64,000 nucleotides of DNA, from assembly GCA_964007735.1 (NCBI GenBank), contig CAXGAI010000001.1, positions 65,798 through 129,797 on the forward strand. Reading direction: 5' to 3'. Source of the stretch: an uncultured Rhodopirellula sp. (GTDB lineage: Bacteria; Planctomycetota; Planctomycetia; Pirellulales; Pirellulaceae). Below are positions 37,561-64,000 of the stretch, in pieces. A program made the translations under genes and the position numbers. The notes beneath the pieces were generated by a model. It worked only from the letters and a program-made list of their open reading frames with translations, searched no databases and was not told the DNA's origin. Position 1 is the first letter of the stretch. Each line of letters begins with the position of its first letter.

Positions 37561-37562
37561 AT

Positions 37563-39863: not shown

Positions 39864-39871
39864 CTTAGTCG

Positions 39872-41890
39872 CTACTTTACACCCCAGTTTTCGTCAAAAA
39901 AGTTGGCATCTTTAGGGATGCCAGGGAATCGATAAATAGAGTCGTTCGGTTCGGGCTTATTAACCACATCGACGATTGCCCAGTCAGGCAGCATGGGAAC
40001 CTGACGAGCATTATTTAGATAAGCGTATTCGCGGTACGTGAATCCACTGTTGATCACGATATATTTTTCGGGATTGAGTGGGTTTGGGTAGATCATGATT
40101 GGAGCATGGCTTTTTGCATCAAATACTTTTTCACCAATGGAAACCCCCCGCTTGTTCCAGGTGAGCGGTAAACGGGCAAGGATATCAGTAATGACTTTAT
40201 TAGATGAAAAGTCTCCCCAAAGAATCAGATTGTGATTTTCAATATCTTCTTCGGTCACAGCGATGTCCTTTTTTATGCGGGCATGTCCTCGAAAATGTTG
40301 ACGCCAATGTTTAATGGCATGTGTCTGTTCCGAAGCAGTCCATTTACCAATCGCTTCATTGATCGGCTCGCCGGTAGGCGTCACCATTAGAAAGCTGCTG
40401 AGGAACGCGTCGTCGATGGGGCCTTGCAAGCCGTGTTTTTTTTGTAATCCATTTTGAGGTTTGGGGCCTGCTACCCAATTGCCGTCATCCCAATGGACTT
40501 CATAGGACCAACTTCGATCAGATTTGGTTTTGGAAGCTGTTAGTACTTGGTTGTTGATTTCGATCGAGATGTCCTCAGTCATATCAAAAGGCGCCAGCCC
40601 CGCCGCCATATCAAATTTCAACCCTGTCACATCCGAGGCTACGATCACAACGCGGTTGCCTTTGATTTCAGCTTTCACACGAGCCGGTTCCCAGTGTTCT
40701 TTCAGGCCGGTAATGGTTAGCCAGTACTGACGATTGTATTTAAGAGAATGTGTAATTTTGTTAACAATGTGTGGTAGTTTGTCGTTGCCTATGCGAGCTA
40801 GGCTGTACATTTTTTCTTCAATAATAGCCTGTGAATCGGGATGGATTCGGTGACCGGTTTTAGGACCGATGATATGAACAAGACTGATGCCTTCTTTGGC
40901 CAGTGCGATTTCCATTATATCGGCAGCTTGTTTCTGGATATCATCTTCACCGCTATAGGCGATCAGTGGAACGTGTGCCAGATTGATGGCATTGTCATCG
41001 GTGTCATACCAACGCCAAAGTTTTTCTTCCCACCAGTAGGGATGCAGGGTTTCCTTTTGGAAGGATTTTAGAAATTCAGGTGTCTCTGAAAAGCCGGCAC
41101 CGGGTGTGGCTGCAAACCAGCGATCGGCGTAAAGATGAGCGAATTGCCAGCAACCGGCTCCACCCATCGAAAAGCCCCGGACACTAATCAAATCGTTATT
41201 AATACGATATTGTGATTTCACATGCTCCATTGCTTCGAGCACATCGATTTCGCCAGCAAACTTAAAGGCATTGCTATAGCGGCCATATGGATGAAGAACG
41301 ATGGTATCGTTCGGTGAGTAATACCCAACCACCTTGGATTGCTTATCAATAAAATTCGTTTCACTCAAGGTTTCCCCACGACCATGAAACCAGATATCCA
41401 GCCGAACTGCCTTCTCGCCATTGGCCTGATAGTTCTCAGGGATTACTAAGCCATAAGGCTGAGCAGAGCCATCAAGTTCACTACGGTATCCACGAACGAC
41501 GAGCCCTGTTTGACTTAACCAGGGGGCTCTCCCATTGAGTAGCTCTTGTGCCCGTTCTTTCCCATGAGTCAGCGCTGTAAAGGCTTTAACAATGTCCTTG
41601 TCGCTAAAGAACTCCTGATGCTCCAAATTGTCTTTTACAGCGCGATGGTAAATCTCAACATCAGGAAGAAGTGTTAACGCCAGGTCAGCTTTCGAGTTCT
41701 TTAATTTCTCCAGCAGTCCAGCTAGTTCTTCTAAGCCGGTATTGAGACGGGATCGGTCGTCTTCCGAAATTTGAACTCCGACTCGTGGAACCTGTCGTAC
41801 CTTATCAGGGTTGTTGTCACCTTCGCCATCTCCATAAGCAGAGGTTGTAATCATGGAAAGGCTAACAAGAAGAAGGATATGGAGTCTCAT
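39872..41890 (-). CDS. secreted alpha/beta-hydrolase / S9-like serine hydrolase
   Basis: Signal peptide. RLDIWFHGRGE..., the nucleophile elbow VRGFSMGGAGCWQ (GXSXG) and a later SGEDD...GHRIH region. The ~300-aa C-terminal extension has no recognised fold. Confidence 0.68.
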   Translation of the reverse strand: MRLHILLLVSLSMITTSAYGDGEGDNNPDKVRQVPRVGVQISEDDRSRLNTGLEELAGLLEKLKNSKADLALTLLPDVEIYHRAVKDNLEHQEFFSDKDIVKAFTALTHGKERAQELLNGRAPWLSQTGLVVRGYRSELDGSAQPYGLVIPENYQANGEKAVRLDIWFHGRGETLSETNFIDKQSKVVGYYSPNDTIVLHPYGRYSNAFKFAGEIDVLEAMEHVKSQYRINNDLISVRGFSMGGAGCWQFAHLYADRWFAATPGAGFSETPEFLKSFQKETLHPYWWEEKLWRWYDTDDNAINLAHVPLIAYSGEDDIQKQAADIMEIALAKEGISLVHIIGPKTGHRIHPDSQAIIEEKMYSLARIGNDKLPHIVNKITHSLKYNRQYWLTITGLKEHWEPARVKAEIKGNRVVIVASDVTGLKFDMAAGLAPFDMTEDISIEINNQVLTASKTKSDRSWSYEVHWDDGNWVAGPKPQNGLQKKHGLQGPIDDAFLSSFLMVTPTGEPINEAIGKWTASEQTHAIKHWRQHFRGHARIKKDIAVTEEDIENHNLILWGDFSSNKVITDILARLPLTWNKRGVSIGEKVFDAKSHAPIMIYPNPLNPEKYIVINSGFTYREYAYLNNARQVPMLPDWAIVDVVNKPEPNDSIYRFPGIPKDANFFDENWGVK

Positions 41891-41940
41891 AGTGTTTATT
41901 CCAAAGTTGGAGTAGGTAAAGCTTGTGCAAGGGATCTATT

Positions 41941-43332
41941 TTACACAACTTTTCCAGGGTTCATGATGTTACGTGGATCGAGGGCATATTTGATCTGCCG
42001 CATGGTAGCGACAGCGTTGCCGTGTTCTTGTTCGAGCGCTTTGCGTTTACCTAGTCCGATCCCGTGTTCCCCTGTGCAAGTACCTCCGACGGCCAAGGCC
42101 ATGTCGATTAATTGTTGATGATAGCCTGTTACCTCTGCAAGTTCAGCGGGACTCTCCGGATCGAGTGGGAAGACAACGTGAAAATTCCCATCACCGACGT
42201 GACCAAATACCGGCGCGGGAAGCGTCGCATTTCTAACAATCTTTTTTGCTTCCAGAAAGCATGTTGCCAATTCTGAAATAGGTACACAAACGTCGGTCAC
42301 ATAGCCCACGGCATTCTCTCTCAAAGCCATAACGGCATGAAAGGAATCGTAACGAGCTTGCCATAGCCGATCCCGGTCTTGCTGATCAAAGGCCCATTGG
42401 AACTCTAAGCCGCCATATTTTGCCGCGATTTGCTTGGCTTGACGTGTTTGCTCGGCTACGTGGTCTTGGGAACCATGAAATTCGAAGAAGATCGTGGGCT
42501 TAAGTTGATTATTCAGTCCACTGTATCTATTGACGGCATCGATTTGGACTTCATCCAGCAGTTCGATTCGGGCGACAGGGACCCCCGCAGCAAGAATTTC
42601 TATAACGGCATCAACGGCATTTTCAATCGAGTCAAATGGACAGATGGCTGAAGAAATCTGAGCAGGTGTTGGATGTAATTTGACGGTGACTTCTGTGATC
42701 ACTCCCAGTGTACCTTCACTTCCAACAAACAAGTGGACGAGATCGTATCCGGCTGATGACTTTCGAGCCCTTCCGCCAGCCTTAATAATTTCCCCGTTGG
42801 CAAGCACGACGGTTAAAGCCAGTGTGTTATCCCGCATGGTTCCGTATTTTACGGCCGAACTGCCTGAGGCTCGTGTGGCGGCCATACCACCAAGCGATGC
42901 ATTCGCGCCAGGATCGACCGTGAAGACTAAATCGGTGCCCTGATTTTGTAAGGCATCATTGAGTTGATAGCGAGTGACACCGGCTTGCACCGTGGCATCA
43001 GTATCAGTCACATTAACGGCGAGCACCTGATTCATATTCGCCAGATCGATGGACAGCCCACCGTAGATCGCCACGACCCCACCTTCAACCGCCGTTCCCG
43101 TACCAAATGGAATCACAGGAACATAGTGCGCATGGCAGAGCTTGACTGCGGAAGAGACTTCCTCTGTATTCAGCGGATAGATGACTGCCTGAGGTGCCTG
43201 AATGTCATGCCTTGACACATCATGCCCATGCTCTCGTAGCACGTGCTTATCGAGTGATAGACGGTCTCCGAATATTTCCCGGAGTTGGGGTAGAATTGCA
43301 TCAATCGTACTGAAGTTGTTGAGTTTACTCAT
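41941..43332 (-). CDS. FAD-linked oxidase (D-lactate dehydrogenase / GlcD-like)
   Basis: FAD_binding_4-type VIPFGTGTAVEGG... and the C-terminal GGTCTGEHGIGLGKRKAL...DPRNIMNPGKV signature. Confidence 0.9.
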   Translation of the reverse strand: MSKLNNFSTIDAILPQLREIFGDRLSLDKHVLREHGHDVSRHDIQAPQAVIYPLNTEEVSSAVKLCHAHYVPVIPFGTGTAVEGGVVAIYGGLSIDLANMNQVLAVNVTDTDATVQAGVTRYQLNDALQNQGTDLVFTVDPGANASLGGMAATRASGSSAVKYGTMRDNTLALTVVLANGEIIKAGGRARKSSAGYDLVHLFVGSEGTLGVITEVTVKLHPTPAQISSAICPFDSIENAVDAVIEILAAGVPVARIELLDEVQIDAVNRYSGLNNQLKPTIFFEFHGSQDHVAEQTRQAKQIAAKYGGLEFQWAFDQQDRDRLWQARYDSFHAVMALRENAVGYVTDVCVPISELATCFLEAKKIVRNATLPAPVFGHVGDGNFHVVFPLDPESPAELAEVTGYHQQLIDMALAVGGTCTGEHGIGLGKRKALEQEHGNAVATMRQIKYALDPRNIMNPGKVV

Positions 43333-43334
43333 GC

Positions 43335-45167
43335 CTACTGGTTCTCAAGTTTAACTCGTTCCCAGATATCGGGGATGAATTCACGCCAGTTTGCATTCGC
43401 CGGGACTTCAAAGGGGAGCCGGTCAAAGTAATTATCATAGATAAGGATTGCAACTCCGCGGTCTCCCATCGACTCAGCGTTGATCATGCGGGCATATTGG
43501 ATCTGCTGTAACAGCACTTCGTCTGATTCATTCTCATGAAGCCATTCCAGTAGCGTTCGGGCGACTTGATATTGGCCGTGTCTTTGGAATGTTAGAGCGA
43601 GCTCAAGTACTGACGGACTGATATTGCCATACCGCTTTAGCGTTTTATCTAATTCATAACGGGCATACTCAAACTTACCAAAGCCAAGCTGGCGATGCAC
43701 GACGGCCAGACTACCACGCAAATCGAACGGCTCCAGTTCGAATAATTGCATATCACGTCGGGCCCAGTTTTCAAGCCAATTGACACGACGTGAGCCGTTA
43801 CTAAAAAATGCCAGAGGTAATGAGTTCAGATAGTCATTGTAAAGATATAGATAGTCATGTAAATCTAAAGCACGATCAGGAACTACAAGCTTATGTTCAA
43901 TTAACCCATCTAGTACAGCTCTGGCGATCAACTGATGACCGTGTATTGTCGGGTGCACATGGTCAACATACATTTCATAACCAGGGATTTTGTCGGTGCT
44001 GGCATTTTCCAATGCCCTTCGCGCGTCGATCAGAGGGATATTATGTTGGGCAGCAAGTTCCCTTTGAATATTATCCATCTTTTCCGAGAGGCGCAATGGG
44101 CAAATATCGAAGTCTTTGGCTAACAGGTAATGCTGTCGTGCAGTCTGTGATTCTCCGAGTTGCTCTAAAGTTCGTCCTAAACGGAAGTGCAGCAGGGCAT
44201 ACTGATCGGAGATCTCCAGACATTGCTTATACCGGTTTAGGGCTGCTTCCGGTTGACCGGTCAACTCAGTGGCTTGTGCAAAAAGACGAAGGAACTCCTG
44301 CTTGTCTTTGGTCGTCAGATCGGGAGGGAGTTCAGACTTAAATGGTGGGCAATCTCTGAGGTTGGATCCCAAACAAACGAATACTAACGGAATATTGGAG
44401 GAGTTGCATTGTTCAATGATGCGCTGTAGCGATTCTTTATATTGTTGTGTAACCTGTGTTTTCCATTCTGGATCCCAATGATAAGAGGCATAGCCGCTTT
44501 CCTCATCTAAGCGCGCCGTCACGTTCTCTGAAAGTTCCTGTCCGGCGGACTCCCTGAAAGATTCCACGTCCTGCCCAATTAGTGAACGTAGCCAAACCAC
44601 GAGCCTTAGGGATTCGAGTGCACTGCGGACCTCGGCTTGCTGGCTTGCCTGATTGAACGTCCGGTTCTCTAGGAATTCGTTATGTCCGGTTGCCAGCACC
44701 AGAAGATCCGGCTTGTAATTTAGAACTTCCTTGCTAATGTGTTGAAGTCGAAAACTGGCATAGGAAAGTCCTCCACAGTTGACTGATTGATAAACAGTGG
44801 AGTTGATACGGCGGTTTAACTCCAGTTCCACCCACTTAGCAAAAGCGGTGTCGACGGCAAAGGGTCGTCCACGTACGGTGGATCCTCCAAGGAAAAACAT
44901 ACGATAGGTGTCTTTCGGTTTGATTGCCTCAAAGGACTGGTCGCCGAAGTAAAGGGCTCGGTTACGAGTCGTGACATAGGTGGTTTCATCTTTGTTAAGC
45001 GAAAACAGTCGTTGCTGGGCCGAGAAACCGGAGGAGGTATCGACTACCTGCTCCGGAGAAGCAATGTCAAAGGCGCGGAAGATACCTTCGAGTATGGCCA
45101 GAGGCAAGAGACCAACACAAATCGCGAGCAGCGAAAAGAGAATCTTCTTTTTATTCGCTACTAACAA
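43335..45167 (-). CDS. membrane-anchored SGNH/GDSL-like hydrolase with a TPR-like C-terminal half
   Basis: N-terminal TM. FFLGGSTVRG (block I-like), VLATGHNEF (block III-like) and VDHVHPT (block V DxxH). TPR-like helices follow (ALNRYKQCLEISDQYALLHFRLGRTLEQLG...). Confidence 0.62.
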   Translation of the reverse strand: MLVANKKKILFSLLAICVGLLPLAILEGIFRAFDIASPEQVVDTSSGFSAQQRLFSLNKDETTYVTTRNRALYFGDQSFEAIKPKDTYRMFFLGGSTVRGRPFAVDTAFAKWVELELNRRINSTVYQSVNCGGLSYASFRLQHISKEVLNYKPDLLVLATGHNEFLENRTFNQASQQAEVRSALESLRLVVWLRSLIGQDVESFRESAGQELSENVTARLDEESGYASYHWDPEWKTQVTQQYKESLQRIIEQCNSSNIPLVFVCLGSNLRDCPPFKSELPPDLTTKDKQEFLRLFAQATELTGQPEAALNRYKQCLEISDQYALLHFRLGRTLEQLGESQTARQHYLLAKDFDICPLRLSEKMDNIQRELAAQHNIPLIDARRALENASTDKIPGYEMYVDHVHPTIHGHQLIARAVLDGLIEHKLVVPDRALDLHDYLYLYNDYLNSLPLAFFSNGSRRVNWLENWARRDMQLFELEPFDLRGSLAVVHRQLGFGKFEYARYELDKTLKRYGNISPSVLELALTFQRHGQYQVARTLLEWLHENESDEVLLQQIQYARMINAESMGDRGVAILIYDNYFDRLPFEVPANANWREFIPDIWERVKLENQ

Positions 45168-45196
45168 GATATATACTCGATTTAGGAAAGGCCGGA

Positions 45197-46135
45197 TTAT
45201 CCAAAAGACTTGGCAACCGCAGTTTTAACTTTAGCTAAGCCTTCGGTGGCGACTTGAAGTGGATCCTGTTTCCAGTAATCAGGATTAAACAGTTCCAGCG
45301 ATAACATACCCCGGCAGCCGGCTTTATAGACCATCTGCAGAATTTTGGTTACTGGGGCAATCCCATCGCCAACATGGACTCGATGCTTATCTGCGATCGT
45401 TGCTCTGGGTGGATTGGCTGGGTAGTCGTTTACATGGAAGCAATGAATGTGTTGACCATTGAGCATTTTTAATCCTTCAAAGGATGAACCACCTTTATAG
45501 ATGTGGTAAATATCCGGCAGGATACATGCATCAGGGTGGCCAGCTTCGGTGGCCACAAAAGCCAGTTCACCAAGTCGGCTTAGTGTTTTAGAGAATCCCC
45601 ATAGTTCTAGTTGCGGTGTAATACCTTCGTTCCGTCCGACTTCACATAGATCGTAATAACGTTTGGCGGCTGCGAACAAGTCAAACCCTTCGATGTCCGT
45701 GGCACCCACAGGAGGAGCTGCGATTCGCACGCCGCCCAGTTCCTTAAGCAGTCCCATGTCATGTTTAGCGGTTTCCAACCCTTTGGCTCGTTCTTGATCA
45801 TCATTAACAATCCAGCGGGCGAATCCAATAGCACTCACTACTTTGACGTTATTGTCGACCAGTTTCTTCCTAAGGTCCTTAAGACTTCCACCAGCATCTT
45901 TAAAGGCTTGTATATCGCGGATCCACGGCTCAATACCTTCGTAGCCGGCTTTGATCACCAGATCGACTTGCTGATCGAGTGAAAGCTGTTGCCCGCGAAC
46001 ACAACTCGTATTGAAGCAGTAGCCGAAAGGTTTTGTTTGGCCATTGACGGAAGAAGCAGTAACGGCTTGCATGGTTCCGACTGTGGTTAACGCGGCTGCG
46101 GATGTTTGAATTAACTGTCGTCGATTAAGATTCAT
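45197..46135 (-). CDS. sugar phosphate isomerase/epimerase (xylose-isomerase-like TIM barrel) with a Tat signal
   Basis: MNLNRRQLIQTSAAALTTVG leader, then ...GYEGIEPW..., ...HVNDYP... and ...LSLELFN... The ATG at 46135 is preferred over the TTG at 46201. Confidence 0.78.
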   Translation of the reverse strand: MNLNRRQLIQTSAAALTTVGTMQAVTASSVNGQTKPFGYCFNTSCVRGQQLSLDQQVDLVIKAGYEGIEPWIRDIQAFKDAGGSLKDLRKKLVDNNVKVVSAIGFARWIVNDDQERAKGLETAKHDMGLLKELGGVRIAAPPVGATDIEGFDLFAAAKRYYDLCEVGRNEGITPQLELWGFSKTLSRLGELAFVATEAGHPDACILPDIYHIYKGGSSFEGLKMLNGQHIHCFHVNDYPANPPRATIADKHRVHVGDGIAPVTKILQMVYKAGCRGMLSLELFNPDYWKQDPLQVATEGLAKVKTAVAKSFG

Positions 46136-46207
46136 GGCCGAGTGATCCAATGCAAATGAAGTCGAAAGAGTGGTGAGGCAATTATTTTTAGTGCTTCTCA
46201 AATTGGG

Positions 46208-48313
46208 TTATTTAGGGTTTGCCCACCCTTCAAGTGTTTCCTTTTCTAGAATACCCCAATAAAGCCGGAAGTCGGCGATCTTCCCTTTGAGACCATTTGC
46301 CTGACCATAGTCTCCGACAAGTGAACCGCCATCCAGGCCTAACGTAAAGGCATCGGCCGGTGCACTGGTAAGAAAAGTGGCTTTGACATCTGTTTGGATT
46401 TTCTTTCCGTTCACCGCAAAACCCAGTTTGGCGTTTCGGTCGAGAACAGCCACGACATGTGTCCATTCATTCAATTCAATTTCCGGACCAACAGCCGTAA
46501 AGCGTTGACCTTGAGAACGAATCGAGAATGTAAGCTTGCTATCTTTGAGCAGCATCGTATAGCCCAGGGCCTCGCCGCCCTGAGCCGCAATCACACCGTT
46601 TCCATCTGTCGGGTTGATGAATCCACCCAATGTGATTGGCTTGTATTCAGGACTGAACTTCCCTCCACTCGGATTGTGGAAGAGATGCTTGCTCCCATCG
46701 GTTTTCACCGCTGCTCCATAGGGCGACTTCTCAGTGTTTTCAAAATCCCCAAAGCGGAAGCGGCGTACAAGCTGAGTTGGCTGAGCTTTTGCCCGAGCAG
46801 CCCCAAAATTAACAATCGTCCCATCATCCTTGTAGAAGTCCTGTAGCCGCTCAAGTTCTATCTCCAGATCTTTTTTGATACTGGCATATGCGGGATCGTC
46901 GTAAACACTTTTTAATTCATTTGGATCCTCTTTCAGATCAAATAATTCCCACTCCTTGTTTTCATAGAAATTGATCAGTTTATAGCGTTCCGTACGAACG
47001 CCATTGTGTTTGGCAACACTATGGGCTCCGGGGAATTCGTAATAGTGGTAGTAAACACTTTTACGCCAATCCTGAGGGGTCCTACCTTCCAAGACGGGCT
47101 TCATGCTGGCACCCTGCATATCCTCAGGCTGGTCAGCTCCGGCGATTTCTAAGAAAGTTTGAGCGAAGTCAAGGTTCATAACCATGTCAGTATTAACGGT
47201 GCCCGGCTTAACTTTGCCGGGCCAGCGAACCATGAGCGGAGTTCGGAAGGATTCTTCATACATCCATCGCTTATCGTACCAGCCATGCTCACCGAGATAC
47301 CAACCCTGATCCGAGGTGTAGATGACAATGGTGTTTTCAGCCAGACCGGATTCTTCGAGATAGTCCAGGACACGTCCGACGTTTTTATCCACACTGTCGA
47401 TGCATCGTAAATAGTCTTTGACATACCGCTGGTATTTCCAGCGGATCAGGGCATCACCTTTCAGATTTAGTTTGGCAAGCTCAGCATTTTTCTTGTCGTA
47501 AGCTTCATTCCAAACGAGCAGTTGTTCTGGTGTCAGGTTTTTTGGGGGATCCAATTTGAGGTCGTATCGAGTCAGATGTTCCTTAACGGTCATTGCCTGA
47601 TTGCCAGCTGCGGACGTACGGCCCTGGTAATCATCAAACAACGTGATCGGCTCAGGAATCGTTTCGTTGTTGTAGTTGTTAATTTCCTCAGGACCAGGCT
47701 GCCAGTTGCGATGCGGAGCCTTGTGTTGATACATCAGGAAGAACGGCTTGTCAGGGTCACGTCGTTCTTTGAGGTATTCAAGAGTCTGATCGGTAATGAT
47801 TTCTGTGGTGTAACCAATATGATTGACCGGGCCATCAGTGGTTTTCATCGGTGGATTGTAATACGGTCCCTGCCCGATGAGAACGTGATAATAATCAAAC
47901 CCAATAGGCGTACTCTTAAGGTGCCATTTTCCAATCACAGCCGTTTCATAGCCAGCCGTTTGTAATAGCTTAGAAACAGTTTGCTGATTCCCGTTAAACG
48001 TATTGCCGTTTCTGACAAAACCGTTTAAATGGCCGTACTTCCCGGTCAAGACAACAGCCCGTGAAGGACCACAGATAGAGTTGGTTACAAAGGCGCGATC
48101 AAAACGCATGCCTTCGTTCGCGATACGGTCCAGATTCGGCGTCTTATTAACAACGCTGCCATACGCACTGATGGATTGGTATGCATGGTCATCTGAAAAA
48201 ATAAAGAGGATGTTTGGACGAGTGTCTTTATCCTGAGCAAAAGAAGCCTGCCCGATTGAAAAACTAAGAGCCATGGTAGCAAACGTCAGAAGTTGTTTTG
48301 AAAAGCGCATCAT
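46208..48313 (-). CDS. Cys-type sulfatase fused to a C-terminal LamG-like domain
   Basis: Signal peptide ([18 protein letters not shown]...), [11 protein letters not shown] and [14 protein letters not shown] (C-x-P-x-R). The C-terminal ~190 aa ([26 protein letters not shown]...IADFRLYWG) are LamG/ConA-like. Confidence 0.88.
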
Positions 48314-48359
48314 CTTCCTTGGAAGTAAAAAGTTCTCGGTAAGTTGGCCGGAAATATCG

Positions 48360-50669
48360 TTACTCCTGAGCAACGACTTTAATGTTCGTGTTAATTTGGT
48401 TACTGGAGACTCTGACTTCAGGCTTCAGATCGGTTCCCGCGTTAGCGACCAATTTAATATCCTTTAAATCAGCAGTTTTTGCTTCTTTTGCAAAGCGTAC
48501 TTCCAGAGTGAATTCAGTTTGATCAGCGGGAACTTCAATGCTTGGAGCGGTATAACCTTCGGGTAGTCCGGCTAGTGTGACCGTTACCGGTTTATCAAAA
48601 CCTGCAGCACGAACGATCGTTCCACTGAAACGTCCGGTTTCTCCTTCGCCAGCGCGGGCCTGGATAGTGGCTTCGGTGGATAATGCCATACGAAGAGCAT
48701 TGAGAGGTGTGATGGTTAGCTGCCTTGTGGAAACAGTTGCGACAACGTTTTTATTGTCAGCACTGAGTAGTTCGGCCAAAATGGCACCTCGCCAAGCCAT
48801 TAATCCAAGATCATGCGGAATCCAGATATTTAATGTTTGGCTAGTTATATCGGCACTCAGCATTAGATCTTCGTTCAATCGCAAAGCCCGATCTGTATCG
48901 TCGACTTCGACGTCTTTGTTATTCTGCTTTACTTTCTTACGAGGCATTGTTTGATTGGAAATTAACCGAAGGCGGATGGTTCCGGTGATGCCTTCCATAC
49001 GCTGAATATTAACGGTGACCGGCAGGAACTTACCTTGAGAGATTTGTATGTCAGTGGCTTCGGTGGCAAGGGAAATGCCGATAGGAGCCGCCGTTGTGCG
49101 AGCGAATCCCAGACTCTGACGAAGTTCAGGCAGTACTCGATAATGTGGGTTATCATTGCCAACAATTGCAACTTTACGGGTGCCAATATTTTCGTCAGCA
49201 GCTGTCGCGATAATTCGACCGATACCGGCAATAGAAGCGCCGTCAGCGGCTGTGATGGAGATGAGCCCACGAGTACGACCAGCAAGAACCTGATTGTTAG
49301 CGACAGTGACGCCTTCGGGTAACCCTTCGAATTCCAGGTCAACGTCGCCATTGTAGCCCTGGCGGGCAAGATCCACGATCACTGTTTGCGTTGAGCCAGC
49401 TGGGATTTGTAGTCGATCCTGAGCGATATTGGCAGCGAATTGTGGCTGACTAATGTCCTGAATTTCAATGCGATAGATAAAGTCCTCCCCACCACGACGC
49501 AACAGGTCGTTGAGTGTGACAGTAATGAATTCCGAGTTTCCCGGCACGGTTATATCAACGCCCGGATCGGATAGTCCCGGACGGTCATCATTTTGCCCGA
49601 TTTGAGCTCCATTGGCTGCCTTAACAACTAAGACCCCATCGACAGGTGATCCTGCGCGACGTGCAACAACATCTAAACGCAATTTAGAACCGGGCTTAGC
49701 GAGTACTTTGAAGCTGTCGGTTTCCCCTTTCTTCGATAAACGCCCGTTGATTCCAACAGGTGCTGCTGGTACGTCCGTCGCGTCATCGTTCTCTATATAC
49801 TCGACATGATTGCTAAAGATGATGCGGGGCCGAGAACCGGTGGAGTGTCCTGTTGTCGGGAGGGGAAGTGAGCTGATCGTATCGCTGGAGGAGTTGACGT
49901 CGATAACACTATCGATATTCGTACGACCATATTTAACACGGGCTGTCTGACCAGCCTGAACTCCAATAGGAAAGGCCAGATCAGCGAAAGACAGATCCCC
50001 TATTTTAAGACGGAACCTTCCCGGTCCGGGTCCCTTGTATAGGATGTCATGCATTTCTAATGTGTACGTACCATCGGCTGGGATCGTAGTGGAAATGCGG
50101 GCATCTCCATAAAGTTCAGGTTGAGGAGCACTGAAGCCGATTTGGACTCCGTCTGCGTTCAGCAACCGTAATACGGGCCGGATGTTGGAACCGATACGAC
50201 GTCCTTCAACATCGACAACGATCGGTTCGCCTGCCTTCCCAACAAATGCTGTTTTAAGAATGTTTCCCCCGCTGAGGTCACCAGCCAAAGCGACTGGTAA
50301 TGTTTCGATGGTTTCCGTGAATGGAATTTGCGTCAGATTGTCGACACCCAGTGAAAGAGCATTAGAGATACCTTTGTCACTCGCTATACGAATCCAGTGT
50401 ATCCCTGGTTGCGACTCAGCTGTGGTCAGTTCGATAACTGCCTTTCCATTGTCAGACCCTTCGACAGCTTTTTGAGCTGAAATCGGAAAAGAAGCGACTA
50501 GCTTTGGAGCCGGTGTCAAATCAGCACCTGTGATAGTAATTTGAACGGTTGTCCCGGACTGAATTCCGGGAACACTGACGTTATTAATCGTTGGTGCAGC
50601 AAGTAGTGCCTGAGCAAAGAAGCTAAATGTAACAACAGTCGAAAGAATAGCAGGCAAAAAGCGATTCAT
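48360..50669 (-). CDS. large secreted protein with PPC (pre-peptidase C-terminal)-like and Ig-like beta domains
   Basis: Signal peptide [24 protein letters not shown]. Two PPC-like blocks: [29 protein letters not shown]...LRLLNADG...[10 protein letters not shown] and [48 protein letters not shown]. Confidence 0.6.
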
Positions 50670-50884
50670 GTCTAATCCGAATGAGTGGTTGTAGGTTTTA
50701 AGTGAAGGGGGCTCTGACGGGACCATGAGCGCATAACCGAGCTCTGGCAAGTCGTCTATTTTACCTTAAAAACGAGAGGGTGGGTATCTACAGAAAGGTT
50801 ACTGAAGCCGTGCAAAAAACCCCGAGAACCTGTCGACGACGGGCCCTTCGGGGTTTGATTTATGGTACCCGGATTCCATGCATT

Positions 50885-57729: not shown

Positions 57730-59757
57730 TTGGATAGTGAATTTTTACAACCCGAGGACATTTTGGGCCCCGAAGGTCGTATTGCTGCACGGCTTAACAA
57801 CTACGAGCACCGTATGCAGCAATTGGAAATGGCAGATGCTGTCGCTGTTGCGTTGGCGGATCACTGCCACCTCGTTGTAGAAGCGGGAACCGGAGTTGGC
57901 AAGAGTTTTGCTTATCTGGTCCCGGCTATTTTGGCTGCAACAGACCCTGAAGATGGCATGTTGGAAACCGAAGATGGCGAAAAGCGTAATCGCCGGATTG
58001 TCATTTCTACGCATACTATCAGCCTTCAGGAACAACTACTCGGAAAAGATTTGCCGCTGCTCAATAGCGTTATCCCTCGTGAGTTTTCAGCGGTACTGGT
58101 GAAAGGTCGAGCTAACTATCTTAGTCAACGTCGGCTGAAGAATGCGGTGAAGCGAAGTGCAACTCTGTTTGAAGGTGATCAGGAGTTGGAGCAGCTTGAT
58201 TTGATCAACGAGTGGGCGAAAGAAACGACTGACGGTAGCCGCAGTACCCTACCATTCCAACCGGTTCCGGCGGTCTGGGATGAGGTTGCCAGTGATTCCG
58301 GAAATTGTATGGGGCGGGCATGTGCGTCTCATAAATCCTGCTTTTATTTCCGCGCCAGACGACGCATGGAGCACGCCCAGATCATCATCGTGAATCACGC
58401 CCTGTTTTTTAGTGATCTGGCTTTGCGTAGTCAGGGTGTAAGTATCCTGCCGGATTATGATGCGGTGATTTTAGACGAGGCTCATACCGTGGAAAGCGTC
58501 GCCGGGGATCATCTTGGCCCAAGTGTCACATCCGGCCAGATTTCATACATCCTCAAAAAATTGTATAACGATCGGACTAACAAAGGCTTGCTCGTTGAAG
58601 GGGGCCACACCAGGGCACAGCAACAGGTCAATCGTTGTTACATCGCAGCCGATGAGCTGTTTGGCACAATTCTGGATTGGAAGCAGAGCCAACCTAAGTC
58701 AAATGGACGAATACAGAAGAAGCAGATGTTTAAGAATGAGTTGAGTGGTGCGTTGTCCAGACTGGCCGGCATGATTAGGCAAATCGCATCCGGTGTTGAA
58801 GATACATCGGATCGAAAAGATTACACGTCAGCTGTGGCAAGGCTTGAAATTCTGTCCGACGCTTTGCATCAATGGATGGAACAATCTTCCCCAGATATGG
58901 TGTATTGGCTGGAAGCATACAATACGAAGCGGAGTGGTCCGCGGGTTTCGTTGCGAGGTGCTCCCTTGGATGTTGGACCGGCGTTACGGAAGGAGCTGTT
59001 CTCGAAAGTGCCGAGCGTGATTTTGACCAGCGCGACACTGGCCGTTGGGAACGATGAACAGTTCAACTTTTTCCGTTCGAGGGTTGGTTTGACCCAATCG
59101 AATCATTCGCAGATTGGTAGTCCGTTTGATTATGAGCGACAGGCAGAACTGATCTTGGTTCAGGGGATGCCGGATCCGTCCCAACAGAAGGGACAGTTTC
59201 GACAACAGACGGTTGAAATGATAAAACGCTACGTTGAACGTACCGACGGTCATGCATTTGTCTTGTGCACCAGTTATGACATGATTCGCTTTCTAACTTC
59301 TGCACTCTCCTCGTGGTTAACTGAAAAGCAACTTGGCATTATTAGTCAGGGTGACGGTGTACCACGAACAGAAATGGTACGCCGTTTCAAAGAGAATCCA
59401 CGCGCAGTTCTATTCGGGACAGATAGTTTTTGGCAGGGAGTGGATGTGCCGGGGGATGCTTTGCAAAACGTTATTATTCCACGTTTACCATTTAGTGTTC
59501 CTGATCAACCCTTGCTGGAAGCTCGATTGGAAAAGATCAAAGCGGAAGGGGGCAATCCTTTTATGGATTTCCAATTACCTGAAGCGACTATTAAATTCAA
59601 GCAGGGTTTTGGCCGCTTGATTAGAACGCGTAGCGATAATGGTATTGTGGTGGTTCTGGACCCAAGAATACGTACTAAATTCTATGGTCAATTATTTATT
59701 GACTCGTTGCCCAAAACGACGATTGTTACCGAATCGGTGGCCCAGCAGGAGTTTTAA
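57730..59757 (+). CDS. dinG: ATP-dependent DNA helicase, DinG/XPD-like (SF2, Fe-S type)
   Basis: Walker A VVEAGTGVGKSFAYL, a Cys cluster C-x5-C-x6-C (SGNCMGRACASHKSCFY), the DEAH box VILDEAHTVE and C-terminal motifs FWQGVDVPG / QGFGRLIRT. TTG start. Confidence 0.85.
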   Translation: MDSEFLQPEDILGPEGRIAARLNNYEHRMQQLEMADAVAVALADHCHLVVEAGTGVGKSFAYLVPAILAATDPEDGMLETEDGEKRNRRIVISTHTISLQEQLLGKDLPLLNSVIPREFSAVLVKGRANYLSQRRLKNAVKRSATLFEGDQELEQLDLINEWAKETTDGSRSTLPFQPVPAVWDEVASDSGNCMGRACASHKSCFYFRARRRMEHAQIIIVNHALFFSDLALRSQGVSILPDYDAVILDEAHTVESVAGDHLGPSVTSGQISYILKKLYNDRTNKGLLVEGGHTRAQQQVNRCYIAADELFGTILDWKQSQPKSNGRIQKKQMFKNELSGALSRLAGMIRQIASGVEDTSDRKDYTSAVARLEILSDALHQWMEQSSPDMVYWLEAYNTKRSGPRVSLRGAPLDVGPALRKELFSKVPSVILTSATLAVGNDEQFNFFRSRVGLTQSNHSQIGSPFDYERQAELILVQGMPDPSQQKGQFRQQTVEMIKRYVERTDGHAFVLCTSYDMIRFLTSALSSWLTEKQLGIISQGDGVPRTEMVRRFKENPRAVLFGTDSFWQGVDVPGDALQNVIIPRLPFSVPDQPLLEARLEKIKAEGGNPFMDFQLPEATIKFKQGFGRLIRTRSDNGIVVVLDPRIRTKFYGQLFIDSLPKTTIVTESVAQQEF

Positions 59758-60542
59758 TGCTCGTGGCCCGCATGAGGATCATCGCTAGGAGCAAGATTAA
59801 ACGAGCCATCGAGACCGCCGATTCCTTCAAGCTGCCAATGGGAGGCTCTTGATTCCGGAAAGATCTGACGCCAATATTGAATCCGAAATGCGAGCGATTC
59901 TTTCAGGTCACCCTTTAGTGGTAGTATATATTCCTGGACAAGCTGGGTTTCGTTCTTCCTAATGCCTCGTACGGATACGTTTTTGTGAATGATTAAATCA
60001 TCTGGTTTCCAGCGGTCGATATGATCGAGCAAGAGGTTAATAGGCTGCTTGGCGAATCGTGCTTTTTGTTCTTCAGCCATTCCTTGATCATTTTGATAGA
60101 ACTCTTCAATATCACGTACCTCGTGGTTGCGGCCTTGTACTGTCAGCATCACCTGATGAGCGTGCCCTAATTGACCGCTTTTGAGATAGCTAAGCCAGAC
60201 GCGGGTTTGTTCTGCTGCTTGCTCGTACAGATAGTTACGGTTGTTGTACTGGTTCCAGATACTCCAAACGCCAAAGCTGATACCAAGAAAGAGTCCCACG
60301 GTGGCAAGTCGTTTTCCCGTATATATTCCAGGTTCTCGTTTAATGTACCAGTAGCCAATGATTCCAAAGATGAAACCAAAAGTGGGAATGATAATTAATC
60401 CGGAAATATAAATCGCCAGTGGTGCTAGTACGGCGAAGACAACGGAAGTCATTGCTGCCCAATGGATACGACGATATCCAGTTTCTTCTCCCCAGCCATC
60501 ATGTGAGTTTGGTGATTTGTAGGGTGATCGTTCCTCAGCCAC
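59754..60542 (-). CDS. hypothetical membrane protein (DUF4190-like N-terminal TM hairpins plus a soluble C-terminal domain)
   Basis: 262 aa with four hydrophobic segments (MTSVVFAVLAPLAIYISGLIIIPTFGFIFGIIGYWYI..., LATVGLFLGISFGVWSIW). Last gene of the pilT operon. Confidence 0.6.
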   Translation of the reverse strand: MAEERSPYKSPNSHDGWGEETGYRRIHWAAMTSVVFAVLAPLAIYISGLIIIPTFGFIFGIIGYWYIKREPGIYTGKRLATVGLFLGISFGVWSIWNQYNNRNYLYEQAAEQTRVWLSYLKSGQLGHAHQVMLTVQGRNHEVRDIEEFYQNDQGMAEEQKARFAKQPINLLLDHIDRWKPDDLIIHKNVSVRGIRKNETQLVQEYILPLKGDLKESLAFRIQYWRQIFPESRASHWQLEGIGGLDGSFNLAPSDDPHAGHEH

Positions 60543-60596
60543 AGTTGGAGTTCCCGTTGATAAATCTGGAAATAGTCTTCCGTATTTCTACGTATA

Positions 60597-61937
60597 TTAA
60601 CTCGACAGTGCTCGCTGTAATTCCTGAATCGAAGTTACACCCTGGGCTAAATGGAGAATTCCTTCTTGCTGAGTGGATTTATTGCCAAGCTGTATAGCCA
60701 ATCGTCGAATCATATCAAGGTCTGGTTGAGTAGCGATTGCCTGACGCAGTTGATCATCCATTGTGATCAGTTCAAAGATCCCCGTTCTTCCGGAAAATCC
60801 GTTCCCCGAGCAATCTTCACATTTCTCAGGCAGATTTCCATTTTCGTCTGGCACCGGCTGGAAGTGCTGATACAGAACCTGTACATGTGAGGGCGGCAGG
60901 CCGAGTTGTTGAATATATTGAGGACCGGGCTGGAACGGTTGCTTGCAAGGATCACACAACTTACGGCACATCCGCATATGAAGCACCCCATTTAGACATT
61001 TGGCAAATTTGTCCGGGGCAACGCCGAGTGAGCGAATTTTGTGAATCGCCTCCACGCCGTCAGTAGCATTGATGGAAATGATCGACATGCGATTGTTATT
61101 CAATGCTTCTTCGCAGAGTGTATCGAGCGTATCTTTATCTGGTATTGAAGGTAAGACGTAGACATCAGGCTCTTTGAGTCTGGCCTTCGCGATTTGTTTT
61201 GGGAAGGTTTCTCCGGCAGTCAGATCGACTTCCATTGTTTCGATGTTTTCAACTTCAGTTTCTTTCAAACCTCGGGGCTCTAGGCAGATAAAATCCCGCA
61301 TAAAGCGGTCGGTTGCACCGAGTGCATGAGACCAGACTGTAGATAACCCTCCCCCATTTGCAGGTGCGGAAATAATGAAAATCCCACTGTGGATCTGCTG
61401 AGATTGATCTTCCATGTATTTTCCCGTCAGCCGTTTTAACTCTTCCAGAACGGCATCACGGATTCCCAGCTCATGGATTGCCTTAAAGCGAGGTTTTTTT
61501 GTTTGCAGCTTTAGGATAATTCGTTCGCCGGTTTGAGTACCGACAGTGGTGATATGACAACGACGTCCGAGTTCACCCGTGTTGGCAGTGAATTCTCCCT
61601 TTTGTTCGCTGACACGATCCTGAGCATCGAGATGCGCGAGCGTTTTCATCACCGCTACCATCATTGTGGCATTTTGAGGGTCAAGCAGAGGAAGCTGCTG
61701 CCATAATCCGTCCACTTCGATCTGAGATGTGGCACCTTGTACGGTGCAGTCAATGAGTATCCGCTCAGCATCATTGATAAGTGCTTCATAGAGCACTTGT
61801 TTCACGGGTACAATACCCATCGATTGCCGACATTGGATTTCGGCGGTTTGGTTTGCTGCGTTGTCGCCCGTAGTTGAACGTAGAACAACAGGGGGGCCCA
61901 TTTCATTTGGGTTCAGACCTTCAGTGTCAGTTGCCAT
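60597..61937 (-). CDS. GspE/PilB-family protein with degenerate ATPase motifs (predicted pseudo-ATPase)
   Basis: Collinear with T2SS/T4P assembly ATPases: N2-like region (...QIEVDGLW..., ...TGERIILKL) and the C-terminal CDPC...CEDCSGNGFSGRTGIFEL tetracysteine/GRxGI[YF]EL. The Walker A position reads SAPANGGGLST (nt 61344..61367), the Walker B/Asp-box position reads EPDVYVLPSIPDKDT, and the His-box position reads NNRMSIISINATDG. Confidence 0.8.
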   Translation of the reverse strand: MATDTEGLNPNEMGPPVVLRSTTGDNAANQTAEIQCRQSMGIVPVKQVLYEALINDAERILIDCTVQGATSQIEVDGLWQQLPLLDPQNATMMVAVMKTLAHLDAQDRVSEQKGEFTANTGELGRRCHITTVGTQTGERIILKLQTKKPRFKAIHELGIRDAVLEELKRLTGKYMEDQSQQIHSGIFIISAPANGGGLSTVWSHALGATDRFMRDFICLEPRGLKETEVENIETMEVDLTAGETFPKQIAKARLKEPDVYVLPSIPDKDTLDTLCEEALNNNRMSIISINATDGVEAIHKIRSLGVAPDKFAKCLNGVLHMRMCRKLCDPCKQPFQPGPQYIQQLGLPPSHVQVLYQHFQPVPDENGNLPEKCEDCSGNGFSGRTGIFELITMDDQLRQAIATQPDLDMIRRLAIQLGNKSTQQEGILHLAQGVTSIQELQRALSS

Positions 61938-61997
61938 TGTTGCGGTTGAATTTCCTCAATGGGTTGTGAAAAAATGGTGGAATAGTTAATTCCTAGA

Positions 61998-63164
61998 CTA
62001 AATAATACCCGGCGTCGAAACATTAATACCTTTAATGGCCATCTTAAGAGCATCTCGATTTGGTGCAACCTTAAACGCCGTTTCGCGATCGATTAGTTCG
62101 TCATCAATTAATTGCTTAAGACTCATTGTGAAGTCCTGCATGCCTTCTTCTGCACCAATTCGAATGGCGTCAGGAAGTTTTTCGTCGTGACCCTCGAGCA
62201 CTAACTTGGTAATCATTGGAGTAAAGGTCATTATTTCACAGGTGGGCACTCGACCAACCCCCTCTCGAATCGAAGGCAGTAGTTTCTGAGCGACAATCCC
62301 TTTCATGTTAAAAGCGATGGCACTGCGGATGGCACCGTGCATTTCTTCCGAGAAAAGGTCAAGAATACGCCCGATGGTGGTGGCTGAACTTGAAGCATGA
62401 ACGGTACCAAATACGAGGTGGCCTGTTTCCGCGGCATGGATCGCCGTCATAAACGTTTCTTCATCACGCATTTCACCCACGAGAATGATATCGGGGTCCT
62501 CTCGTACGGCGTGCTTCATTGCAATTTCAAAATCTTTCACATCCTGTCCAACTTCCCGTTGGTTGATGAGGCATTTATCCTCCGTGTAGACGAATTCGAT
62601 GGGGTCTTCAAGAGTCAGGATGTGCTTGCGATAGATACTGTTGATATAGTTCAGCATTGAAGCAATGGTGGTTGACTTGCCGGAGCCAGTAACCCCGGCC
62701 AGTAGAACCATCCCCTGATCAAAGTGACATAGTGTCTCCATCACAGGAGGTAAATGAAGTCCGCGGAAGTCAGGGATCCAGTTACTAATACGACGAGCGA
62801 CTAAACCGATATTGCCGAGTTGTGTCAGCATGTTCACACGGAAACGCCAGGTCTCCCCATCCACATCGACAGTGTAGGCAAAGTCAGCACCCCCTTCATC
62901 TTCGAAGATTTTCTGATTCTTCTTGTCCATCATGGGGAACAGCAAACGAACCATTTCTTCCCGTTCGATAGGTCCGCGATTTAACTCACGAAGCGTTCCG
63001 TCAACGCGAACGATCGGAGGACGGCCGACTTTGAGGTGCAGGTCGGATCCTTCCAGTTTTACTAGCGCGCGGAAAATCTTATCGACTTCGAGTTCTTCCT
63101 TCTTTTGAAGGAATCGCTCCATAACCTGTTCAACATTACCTGCTGATTGTTCTGTTGAGGCCAT
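61998..63164 (-). CDS. pilT: type IV pilus retraction ATPase PilT/PilU family
   Basis: GSDLHLKVGRPPIVRVDG, Walker A LAGVTGSGKSTT, LEDPIEF, Walker B REDPDIILVGEMRDEET, the His box AAETGHLVFGTVHA and the AIRN-like AIRSAIAFNMKGIVAQKLL. Confidence 0.9.
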   Translation of the reverse strand: MASTEQSAGNVEQVMERFLQKKEELEVDKIFRALVKLEGSDLHLKVGRPPIVRVDGTLRELNRGPIEREEMVRLLFPMMDKKNQKIFEDEGGADFAYTVDVDGETWRFRVNMLTQLGNIGLVARRISNWIPDFRGLHLPPVMETLCHFDQGMVLLAGVTGSGKSTTIASMLNYINSIYRKHILTLEDPIEFVYTEDKCLINQREVGQDVKDFEIAMKHAVREDPDIILVGEMRDEETFMTAIHAAETGHLVFGTVHASSSATTIGRILDLFSEEMHGAIRSAIAFNMKGIVAQKLLPSIREGVGRVPTCEIMTFTPMITKLVLEGHDEKLPDAIRIGAEEGMQDFTMSLKQLIDDELIDRETAFKVAPNRDALKMAIKGINVSTPGII

Positions 63165-63380
63165 CTTGTACTACTCCACGTATCCACGGGGTTCTGCCGG
63201 GCTTGTTTAACTTAAATTGTCTGAAGAGCTCAGACGTCTAATTGAAAAGTTGACTGTTAGGATTGTTCTCCGATTTCACAGTATAGACAAGTATAGCACA
63301 TGGATTTAACGGTGCGAGTTTACATAGATCACCGTACATATCGTGGAAAAGTTTGCTAACAAACCTTTCAGTTCTCGAGC

Positions 63381-63409
63381 TTATAGCTAGCCCGCAAATA
63401 ATCTATAAT
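63381..63409 (+). promoter_or_regulatory. possible sigma70-type promoter for the downstream TIM-barrel gene
   Basis: TTATAG (63381..63386), 17 nt, TATAAT (63404..63409), about 50 nt upstream of the ATG at 63460. This is a pattern match only. Confidence 0.25.
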
Positions 63410-63459
63410 GAAAATTGCATAATTCAAAAGATAGATACTTTTTGTTGGGCGAATAGTTT

Positions 63460-64000
63460 ATGGGTCAGTTTTTGTTACATCGCCGGCAAATAATGGCAGC
63501 AGCAGCGGCCGGCCTCTCTATGTTTGATTTACCACGCCTTTCCGCGTCAGAAGACCCATTTAATGGCTTGCCTATTGGAATTCAAACTTTCTCATTGCGT
63601 GGGTATAACCTGCTTGAAACCATTCGTCATATTCAGGGAATGGGGCTTCATTTTGTCGAGTTTTATCCGGACCATGTTCCTCAGACGATCGATGAGGAAG
63701 GCTTGAGAAATCTTAACCAATTGTTAAACAAGGCCGATATCAAAATGGCAGCTCATGGCGTTTGGAGCTTCAGTAATGATCACGAGTTTAACAAGAGCAT
63801 CTTCGATTTCGCTAAACGATTAGGGGTTAAATGCTTAACGGCTAACCCGGCGCCGGATTCGTTTGAATCACTTGATAAGTTGGTTGACGAGTATAAAATC
63901 CGAGTCGCGATCCATAACCATGGGCCGGATGCTTTGTACGATAAAATTAGCTCAGTAGTTGATGCAGTGAAGGACCATCATCCACTCATTGGATCCTGTG
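63460..64000 (+). CDS. sugar phosphate isomerase/epimerase (xylose-isomerase-like TIM barrel) with a Tat-like leader; the 3' end runs off the window
   Basis: Not in the ORF track because it is open at the edge. My own translation gives MGQFLLHRRQIMAAAAAGLSMFDLPRLSASEDPFNGLPIGIQTFSLRGYNLLETIRHIQGMGLHFVEFYPDHV...KIRVAIHNHGPD... Confidence 0.75.
   Translation, partial: MGQFLLHRRQIMAAAAAGLSMFDLPRLSASEDPFNGLPIGIQTFSLRGYNLLETIRHIQGMGLHFVEFYPDHVPQTIDEEGLRNLNQLLNKADIKMAAHGVWSFSNDHEFNKSIFDFAKRLGVKCLTANPAPDSFESLDKLVDEYKIRVAIHNHGPDALYDKISSVVDAVKDHHPLIGSC

Follow-up and report, generated by a model that had tools for sequence, protein, structure and literature searches.

A predicted pseudo-ATPase of the GspE/PilB family is maintained beside a pilT paralogue in Planctomycetota

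Introduction

What is the role of a protein that has the build of a pilus or secretion assembly ATPase, is encoded directly behind an intact pilT and no longer carries the residues needed to hydrolyse ATP? The question is raised by a 64,000-nucleotide (nt) stretch of DNA from an uncultured Rhodopirellula sp. (Planctomycetota, Pirellulaceae; contig CAXGAI010000001.1, positions 65,798 to 129,797), referred to here as the window, in which an initial annotation made from the letters alone had noticed a gene for a GspE/PilB-family paralogue of 446 amino acids (aa) and predicted it to be a pseudo-ATPase. PilB/GspE-type ATPases are soluble motors. Their catalytic positions are completely or highly conserved across all PilT-like ATPases and mutation of these abolishes activity, and the Walker A Lys together with the Arg fingers, R271 and R286 of PilB, forms the chief phosphate contacts (McCallum et al., PMC5424180). 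A tetracysteine marks the assembly ATPases of the GspE/PilB clade and is absent from the retraction ATPases (PMC5061722, PMC5424180). We report that the window gene encodes a protein that keeps the assembly-ATPase fold but not the residues of hydrolysis, and that it has an ancient and tight linkage to genes for an active PilT and for membrane proteins, and we weigh what its function may be.

Results

Fold, motif state and family assignment

The gene was confirmed as an uninterrupted open reading frame (ORF) with an ATG start that encodes 446 aa (Table 1). Pfam matches the window protein to PF00437 (T2SSE) with 112.8 bits over profile positions 12-370 of 370, and its best solved relatives by sequence are Thermus PilF, Vibrio GspE and Geobacter PilB. 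An AlphaFold2 (AF2) model based on 55 family sequences has a predicted local distance difference test score (pLDDT) of 91.8 and a predicted template-modelling score of 0.84, with the N-terminal linker modelled at a pLDDT of about 90, and a Foldseek search with this model retrieved PilF and PilB structures with target-normalised template-modelling scores of 0.84-0.87 (0.86-0.87 for PilF 5it5 and PilB 5tsh) and E-values of 1e-34 to 1e-37.

Motif columns were set by HMMER alignment to Thermus PilF (5oiu, E 5e-39) and by family alignments anchored with intact sequences, with G. metallireducens PilB providing the reference residues (catalytic Glu E395, His-box H413 and H420, Arg fingers R271 and R286, Mg-Glu E357). 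These alignments place the motifs where the initial annotation had put them. The codons that it had read through the Walker A region, GCA CCT GCA AAT GGG GGA GGG TTA, were found exactly at 61367..61344, and L198 stands in the column of the P-loop Lys, the loss of which it had claimed; no intact GxxGxGK[ST] occurs anywhere else in the 446-aa protein, by pattern search or by alignment. The loss of the catalytic Glu is likewise borne out, with P263-S264 in the Gly-Glu columns, and the His box has lost both of its His residues (R283, N290) where one had been named. The broader statement that every hydrolysis motif is degenerate stands for Walker A, Walker B and the His box, but needs a qualification for the Asp box, which is altered only in part and retains E220. 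An insertion makes the Mg-Glu column of this box ambiguous, HMMER aligning E226 and MAFFT L224. R108, R125 and R126 lie near the Arg-finger columns, yet are not aligned to them. The residues C328, C331, C373 and C376 and the GRTGIFEL motif are present, as had been described, and Zn binding is predicted from them. From this motif state the window protein is predicted to be without ATP hydrolysis.

The window protein shares with GspE, PilB and PilF (PF00437; 5oiu/5it5, 5tsh, 4pht/1p9r) the N2D and CTD core, the fold, the CxxC...CxxC and GRxGIFE motifs and the C-terminal helices. Unlike GspE and PilB, it lacks the catalytic residues and the MshEN/N1E domain (Pfam gave no match to the MshEN/GSPII N-terminal domain, PF05157), and its gene does not stand beside pilC/gspF. 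The highest-ranking NCBIfam models are GspE, PilB and TfpB, all 4-6 times under their equivalog cut-offs (138 bits against 630 for GspE TIGR02533 and 115 against 676 for PilB TIGR02538). Because the catalytic residues expected of a member are missing and the scores fall below the curated equivalog thresholds, the protein should be filed as a pseudo-ATPase derivative of the GspE/PilB clade and not as GspE, PilB or TadA. The name TadA/CpaF, carried by one orthologue, was rejected since no TadA model is among the NCBIfam matches and the tetracysteine is present.

A Planctomycetota family with patterned substitutions

A word-indexed search returned about 96 homologues with identities down to about 28%, and those with names come from metagenome-assembled genomes (MAGs) of Planctomycetota, namely Planctomycetaceae, Pirellulaceae, Pirellulales and Lacipirellulaceae; the taxonomy of family members is that of the MAG labels throughout. 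In an exhaustive profile search over 1.84 billion representatives, 150 or more clusters (50% identity) reached at least 351 bits, and the best 150 representatives comprise 135 proteins with degenerate motifs, hereafter the dead family (91 long forms, 30 short forms and 14 fragments), about 4 intact relatives and 11 double-ATPase proteins. The dead family is Planctomycetota-specific and has at least 135 clusters at 50% identity. A single member (P0150, 446 aa, on an 1831-bp MAG contig) is labelled "Pseudomonadales bacterium", the sole label from outside Planctomycetota and probably a binning error.

Substitutions were counted over the 135 dead representatives. The Walker A Lys column holds Leu in 105, Phe in 10, Met in 5 and Lys in 2, and the loss of the Lys is thus a conserved trait (absent from 133 of 135). 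Of the neighbouring positions, G197 is unchanged in 132 and T200 in 104, and the first Glu of the Asp box, E220 in the window protein, is Glu in 101. The Walker B Gly has become Arg in 70 and Pro in 46, and the catalytic Glu column remains acidic in 105 (76 Asp, 29 Glu). At the two His-box positions Arg predominates, with 74 Arg and 27 Lys at the first (H1) and 78 Arg, or 86 Arg and Lys together, at the second (H2); the Asn of HTN is Lys in 69 and Arg in 21, and both Arg-finger columns are variable. The tetracysteine is intact in 146 of the 150 family representatives and is invariant in subsets A1 and A2, and in subset A2 the linker residues P15, P16, V17 and Q38 are invariant or nearly so. 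The clade of the window protein departs further from the consensus of the dead family, with P263, S264, N290 and T292.

The eleven double-ATPase proteins (P0277, P0278, P0282, P0289-P0292, P0304, P0305, P0309 and P0329) are about 990-1050 aa long, with two T2SSE-type stretches and no N-terminal anchor, and form a group separate from the dead family; in three, a single GxxGxGK[ST] pattern is intact, and these may be internal tandems of a live and a dead ATPase.

Purifying selection

Between the window gene and its closest orthologue (locus L089, 93% aa identity) the ratio of non-synonymous to synonymous substitution rates (dN/dS) is 0.053 at an unsaturated dS of 0.67, and the dN to locus L088 is 0.089, which lies between the values for the flanking ThiG (0.059) and DinG-like helicase (0.108). 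Dozens of orthologues are exactly 446 aa long without indels, and the cluster counts over 100 near-identical members. Position 264, formerly that of the catalytic Glu, varies freely in the window's clade (S/H/L/Q/Y/V), in contrast to the constraint on all other parts of the protein, as expected with catalysis gone and structure still mattering. The gene is under strong purifying selection, in agreement with the original view of it as maintained and not decaying. With its lost catalytic residues and its conserved family and gene order, the protein fits the definition of a pseudoenzyme. A decaying pseudogene or an annotation artefact, which the degenerate catalytic motifs might otherwise suggest, has next to no chance of being the right description: it is refuted by the uninterrupted ORF and the integrity of the orthologues, by the confident AF2 model, by the low dN/dS and by the depth of a family with conserved non-catalytic residues.

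Linkage to an intact pilT

The intact pilT that had been placed 60 nt upstream of the dead ATPase gene is there, with both the spacer and the motifs verified. Its product retains Walker A (GVTGSGKST), DPDIILVGEMRDEET and the His box (TGHLVFGTVH), and the best match in the Protein Data Bank is Aquifex PilT 2ewv with 284 bits. Homologous loci were compared, of which L001-L011 came from a contig scan with the pattern G[FY]xGR[TI]G[ILM]FE, taken from a 21-sequence alignment, a pattern that also matches ordinary GspE genes. A pilT gene lies directly upstream and on the same strand in 15 of the 16 assessable dead-family loci. In nine loci of the Pirellulales type the pilT stop and the dead-ATPase start overlap by 1 or 4 nt (TAATG, TGATG, GTGA), which indicates translational coupling, and in the window's lineage the two genes are 44-124 nt apart.

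The PilT of this module has intact catalytic motifs in every locus, and its identity across loci is 71-98% (71-79% between orders) compared with 29-84% for the dead ATPase; where the dead ATPase is 84-87% identical, the PilT is 96-98% identical. The C-terminal tail is conserved as well (...ALKMAIKGINVSTPGII; pattern ...ALKMA[LI]KGI.V..PGI[LI], window 61998-62030). It is found also at L002-L010, L081-L086 and L090, reaches about 9 residues past the end of the alignment with Aquifex PilT, and could be a docking peptide.

The same orders have classical pilus clusters (L070, L053), in the order PilB with MshEN, PilT, a second PilB, and PilC or pilin. The module PilT shares just 39% identity with its counterpart in the classical cluster of L070 (Planctomycetaceae), and among the loci examined the dead ATPase gene is never in or beside a classical cluster. 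We infer that the module stands apart from the classical PilB-PilT-PilC cluster; its PilT is a dedicated paralogue, distinct from that of the classical cluster.

A hisF/hisA-like gene (PF00977, 255-263 aa) repeatedly adjoins the module pilT (L081:5783-6550, L082:5754-6521, L083:6953-7720, L084:7018-7809, L086:6798-7586, L088:2820-3587), and lies directly upstream on the same strand in Pirellulales and in one Planctomycetales locus. In the window, a hairpin with a 7-bp stem, followed by an A/T-rich tail, lies at 63219-63235 (-) in the pilT leader, ahead of the start codon. Rfam gave no match at E <= 1 for a riboswitch or other RNA element in 59000-64000, and promoter and terminator scans were at or below the expectation from shuffled sequence.

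Descent from a membrane-anchored ATPase

Long members of the family (580-680 aa) have an N-terminal signal/anchor segment and three hydrophobic helices, with the signature RGPGxYL..K.L..W..F..W[VI].T.DW[VI]N.D.Q...WN...RN..V...VLT..H.R; Pfam gave no match to this anchor domain. Transmembrane (TM) segments were called by a hydropathy window, and at least two N-terminal ones are present in 82 of the 91 long dead forms of the exhaustive set and such segments in 28 of 29 of the first set, whereas none of 21 canonical GspE/PilB hits (P0100-P0120) has an N-terminal anchor. The ancestral form of the dead family, with signal/anchor and 3-TM domain, differs from GspE and PilB in this respect too, and the window form has neither element.

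The same anchor is found in intact relatives (P0095, P0098, P0298, P0333 and the 582-aa Isosphaeraceae protein of L009), which retain GPTG[SA]GK[ST]T, GEIRD and TGH..(L/V)H.N and score about 385 bits to PF00437 against 113-158 for dead members. These intact anchored ATPases of the Isosphaeraceae type are the nearest relatives of the dead family, with the same module order of pilT, GspE-like gene and Colicin_V/CvpA-like gene; they differ from it in the catalytic motifs that they have kept, and likewise appear uncharacterised. In a crude neighbour-joining tree on BLOSUM distances with the canonical enzymes as outgroup, all dead forms together have the intact anchored clade as their sister group; among the dead forms, the anchored ones are basal and the short soluble ones are nested within these.

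The window protein starts at the linker that follows the anchor in long members, its EMGPPVV corresponding to WEMGPPIVF in P0049 (...WEMGPPIVFRAGG..QANLIEARQV), and no anchor can be encoded before this start because pilT ends 60 nt upstream. Neither a detached anchor nor a CvpA-like gene was found elsewhere in the 64,000-nt window. Gene fission, with one of the two membrane-protein families described below (M1 or M2) as the detached anchor, was rejected on hhalign probabilities of 3.2% for anchor and M2, 0.1% for anchor and M1 and 0.2% for M1 and M2. Taken together, the sequence comparisons indicate that the dead family arose from a membrane-anchored, active GspE-like ATPase and that the 446-aa protein of the window is a secondarily soluble form; a single loss of catalysis, then one or more losses of the anchor, is the most economical history.

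Two loci (L003:2782-5911, L085:7111-10302) have a tandem in which pilT is followed first by a long dead ATPase with an anchor and then by a short soluble one (433-460 aa), which suggests that short forms can arise by duplication and anchor loss. Another anchored protein (P0330, 579 aa) has an intact Walker A (GPEGAGKTT) with GALED at Walker B and ..DAPD at the His box, an apparent intermediate state. A 551-aa GspE-like protein from a Pirellulales MAG (L011:7563-9218(+); P-loop GPKKSGVTST, Walker B GIADCED) branches at the base of the dead family; its gene precedes one for a protein of 373 aa that has 4 hydrophobic segments, and 6 kb upstream lies a gene for a PilT with 44% identity.

Membrane-protein neighbours and the remainder of the window

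Two membrane-protein families come after the dead ATPase gene: M1, a 4-TM Colicin_V/CvpA-like protein (PF02674), and M2, which is the third module gene in the window's lineage. M1 follows every anchored form (13 of 13 loci, including the intact ones in L009, L087 and L090) and is absent from all six loci that have short forms only, the window among them, a pattern (13/13 against 0/6) which implies that the presence of M1 is tied to that of the anchor. In L009 (Isosphaeraceae) and L090 it is the intact relatives that hold the slot between pilT and the Colicin_V gene. Homologues of M2 lie directly 3' of the dead ATPase gene in L001, L081-L083 and L088; in L004-L006 and L084 they come after the CvpA-like gene. 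The C-terminal domain of M2, of alpha/beta type and about 150 aa, ends in a His-rich tail. The AF2 model of M2, for which only 8 close sequences were available, has a pLDDT of 63.7, and Foldseek with this low-confidence model gave no match at E <= 0.001, the weak NTF2-like and VirB8-like matches being at noise level. A PADLOC search for known defence systems matched neither the dead ATPase nor M2; PilT gave generic P-loop hits and nothing more specific.

Stand-alone GGDEF genes (178-180 aa) occur near the module in two Planctomycetaceae loci (L081:1497-2033, L082:11158-11700), that of L082 directly after M2. The rest of the window is of ordinary planctomycetal content. It includes a same-strand run at 36244-50750 (-) with DUF1552, PSD/PSCyt cytochrome-c with PA14, sulfatase with laminin-G-like, GDSL/TPR and FAD oxidase genes, and a 796-aa ORF at 48360-50750 (-) without a Pfam match.

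Table 1. Features of the module in the window, in order of position.
Feature	Coordinates	Strand	Description
M2, conserved 262-aa membrane protein	59754..60542	-	Conserved N-terminal peptide WGEETGYRRIHW; about 3 TM segments (weak DUF4190); C-terminal domain of about 150 aa
Dead GspE/PilB-type gene	60597..61937	-	Post-anchor linker, N2D, CTD and Zn tetracysteine (Zn predicted); short soluble form
Tetracysteine metal-binding subdomain (predicted)	60810..60956	-	C328-x2-C331 ... C373-x2-C376
Degenerate His box	61062..61097	-	TGH..TLHTN replaced by N281-NRMSIISINAT292; H1 is R283, H2 is N290
Degenerate Walker B and catalytic Glu	61137..61172	-	DPDxxxVGEIRD replaced by E256-PDVYVLPSIPD267; Gly is P263, Glu is S264
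Modified Asp box	61254..61283	-	IEDPVE replaced by LEPRGLKETE (L219-E228); 2-residue insertion, E220 kept
Degenerate Walker A	61338..61370	-	Active GPTGSGK[ST]T replaced by S190-A-P-A-N-G-G-G-L198-S-T200; Lys is Leu198
Arg-finger segment of N2D	61554..61616	-	Active RxPQDGR...D[VL]R[VL]S replaced by R108-VSEQKG-E115 ... RRC-H128; both fingers substituted
N-terminal 44 aa (EMGPPVVL...NQ...RQS)	61806..61937	-	Homologous to the post-anchor cytoplasmic linker of long family members
Spacer between pilT and dead ATPase gene, 60 nt	61938..61997	-	No terminator-like hairpin
Dedicated PilT paralogue, 388 aa	61998..63164	-	TIGR01420 396.5 bits against a cut-off of 319.1

Discussion

We favour, with a probability of about one half, a composite reading in which the dead ATPase is a non-catalytic structural partner of the adjacent PilT. 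The ancestor was already encoded between the PilT paralogue and the CvpA-like membrane protein, and the window's lineage later lost the anchor and the CvpA-like gene and retained pilT, the dead ATPase and M2. The dead protein may keep the ring-forming N2D/CTD architecture and oligomerise as a PilB-like ring, and such a ring could act as a stator, scaffold or adaptor that couples the sole active motor, the PilT paralogue, to membrane components; these would be its own TM anchor and the CvpA-like protein in most lineages and M2 in that of the window. An active pair in one lineage, a dead/active pair in its sisters and a highly conserved active member together make up the pattern left where paralogous ATPases share an assembly and one of them takes on a structural role.

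Several points weigh against a structural partnership with PilT. Oligomerisation, contact with PilT and membrane association of the dead protein are all inferred, the tree is crude and the taxonomy is taken from MAG labels. One dead-family locus (L008) has no pilT within 17 kb, and the module loci are without a pilin, PilC/GspF (T2SSF), PilM or secretin gene. The window's clade is without several family-typical residues, and conclusions drawn for the family may not carry over to it fully. Lastly, the pocket of most members is remodelled, with Arg or Lys newly present in both His columns and in place of the Walker B Gly, and with an acidic residue still at the catalytic position, which could indicate that it binds a ligand. 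On this last point, the pocket might bind but not hydrolyse an anionic ligand (ATP/ADP, a cyclic dinucleotide or (p)ppGpp), and the protein would then be a sensor or allosteric regulator of PilT or of the membrane partners, an idea compatible with a scaffold. The conserved Gly-rich loop and the Thr that follows it (G197, T200), the patterned basic gains (Arg or Lys at H1 in 101, at H2 in 86 and at the Asn in 90, Arg at the Walker B Gly in 70), the acidic catalytic position and the small GGDEF genes near the module in L081 and L082 would fit such a sensor. Nevertheless, the Walker A Lys and both Arg fingers, the chief phosphate contacts (PMC5424180), are lost, the window's clade is without most of the compensating basic residues (P263, S264, N290, T292) and varies freely at 264, and neither an MshEN/GSPII domain for cyclic di-GMP (Pfam) nor a riboswitch (Rfam, 59000-64000) was found, and we consider regulation through a bound ligand unlikely. 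That the protein is still an ATPase by way of non-canonical residues, for example with a basic residue from elsewhere in place of the P-loop Lys, is very improbable: many members are acidic at the catalytic Glu position and have gained Arg or Lys near the gamma-phosphate site, but the window protein has Ser at that freely variable position, Leu for the P-loop Lys, no His-box His and no Arg fingers, and the lost residues are completely conserved in PilT-like ATPases, where their mutation abolishes activity (PMC5424180).

Interference with the classical pilus would be a different role. Here a dead ring would mimic PilB and contend with the active PilB (or PilT) for access to the PilC/PilM platform, and so serve as a brake or clutch, either stabilising pili or setting how extension and retraction are balanced. 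The same orders do carry classical PilB-PilT-PilB-PilC/pilin clusters, the window protein retains the tetracysteine and the N2D/CTD core of assembly ATPases, and the cysteine mutants of EpsE are dominant negative (PMC5061722), so that inactive members can interfere with active ones. We find this role doubtful, given that in the loci examined the gene lies away from the classical clusters with its own PilT paralogue and membrane partners, and that the ancestral form is membrane-anchored and without the MshEN/N1E of canonical PilB and GspE, which argues for a separate assembly. Such an assembly could go beyond a structural partnership with PilT: the PilT paralogue, the dead GspE-like protein and the small membrane proteins M1 and M2 might constitute an unrecognised envelope machine specific to Planctomycetota, independent of the classical pilus, in which the silent PilB-type ring replaces PilC/PilM as platform or stator. 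The ancestral dead protein would be embedded in the membrane by three TM helices per subunit, and the machine might serve, for example, fibre or crateriform-structure biology or a macromolecule uptake peculiar to Planctomycetota. This wider proposal is tentative and, in our view, unlikely.

Non-catalytic subunits have precedents in other ATPases, such as the alpha subunits of F1-ATPase, which belongs to an unrelated clade and offers an analogy of principle. The membrane-bound, multi-ATPase EssC/EccC proteins of type VII secretion (PMC4925161) contain a degenerate-site module that keeps its fold and interfaces and not its catalysis, again an analogy of principle from an unrelated, FtsK-like clade for the way in which an inactive ring could serve an active one. 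Closer in kind are PilT/PilU pairs (PMC6821130), where two adjacent genes encode hexameric ATPases of the PilT-family fold and one depends on the other; PilU, however, is an active ATPase of the PilT clade, whereas the partner in the window is of the PilB/GspE clade, with its tetracysteine, and is predicted to be catalytically dead. TfpB of Acinetobacter baylyi (PMC8213720) is also an accessory, phylogenetically distinct PilB paralogue encoded away from pilC, beside a canonical motor, but in that study it is a functional extension motor needed for pilus synthesis, and the window protein has lost the catalytic residues and is associated with PilT rather than with genes of pilus extension. We found no described dead PilB/GspE paralogue and no membrane-anchored GspE-like ATPase in Pfam, NCBIfam or the open-access literature (including a 2024 review on PilB cofactors), an absence which, for open-access sources, is not proof. 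The dead Planctomycetota family is apparently undescribed, and the initial annotation, which knew of no dead GspE/PilB paralogue associated with PilT, finds no contradiction there.

The dead lineage breaks two rules, that of the soluble motor, as its ancestor was membrane-anchored, and that of complete conservation of the catalytic motifs (PMC5424180). If the dead ring partners PilT, then, to the extent of our searches, no pseudo-ATPase component of a type IV filament-like motor has been described before it. If true, this would also provide a natural experiment on docking and force transmission in hexameric motors, where intact and dead versions can be compared because both occupy the same module in sister lineages. 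Current database labels for these proteins are generic ("ATPase, T2SS/T4P/T4SS family", "TadA", "hypothetical") and would mislead inference of metabolism and motility from MAGs. The analysis flags an unannotated module of three or four genes in Planctomycetota, a phylum with poorly understood envelope and fibre biology.

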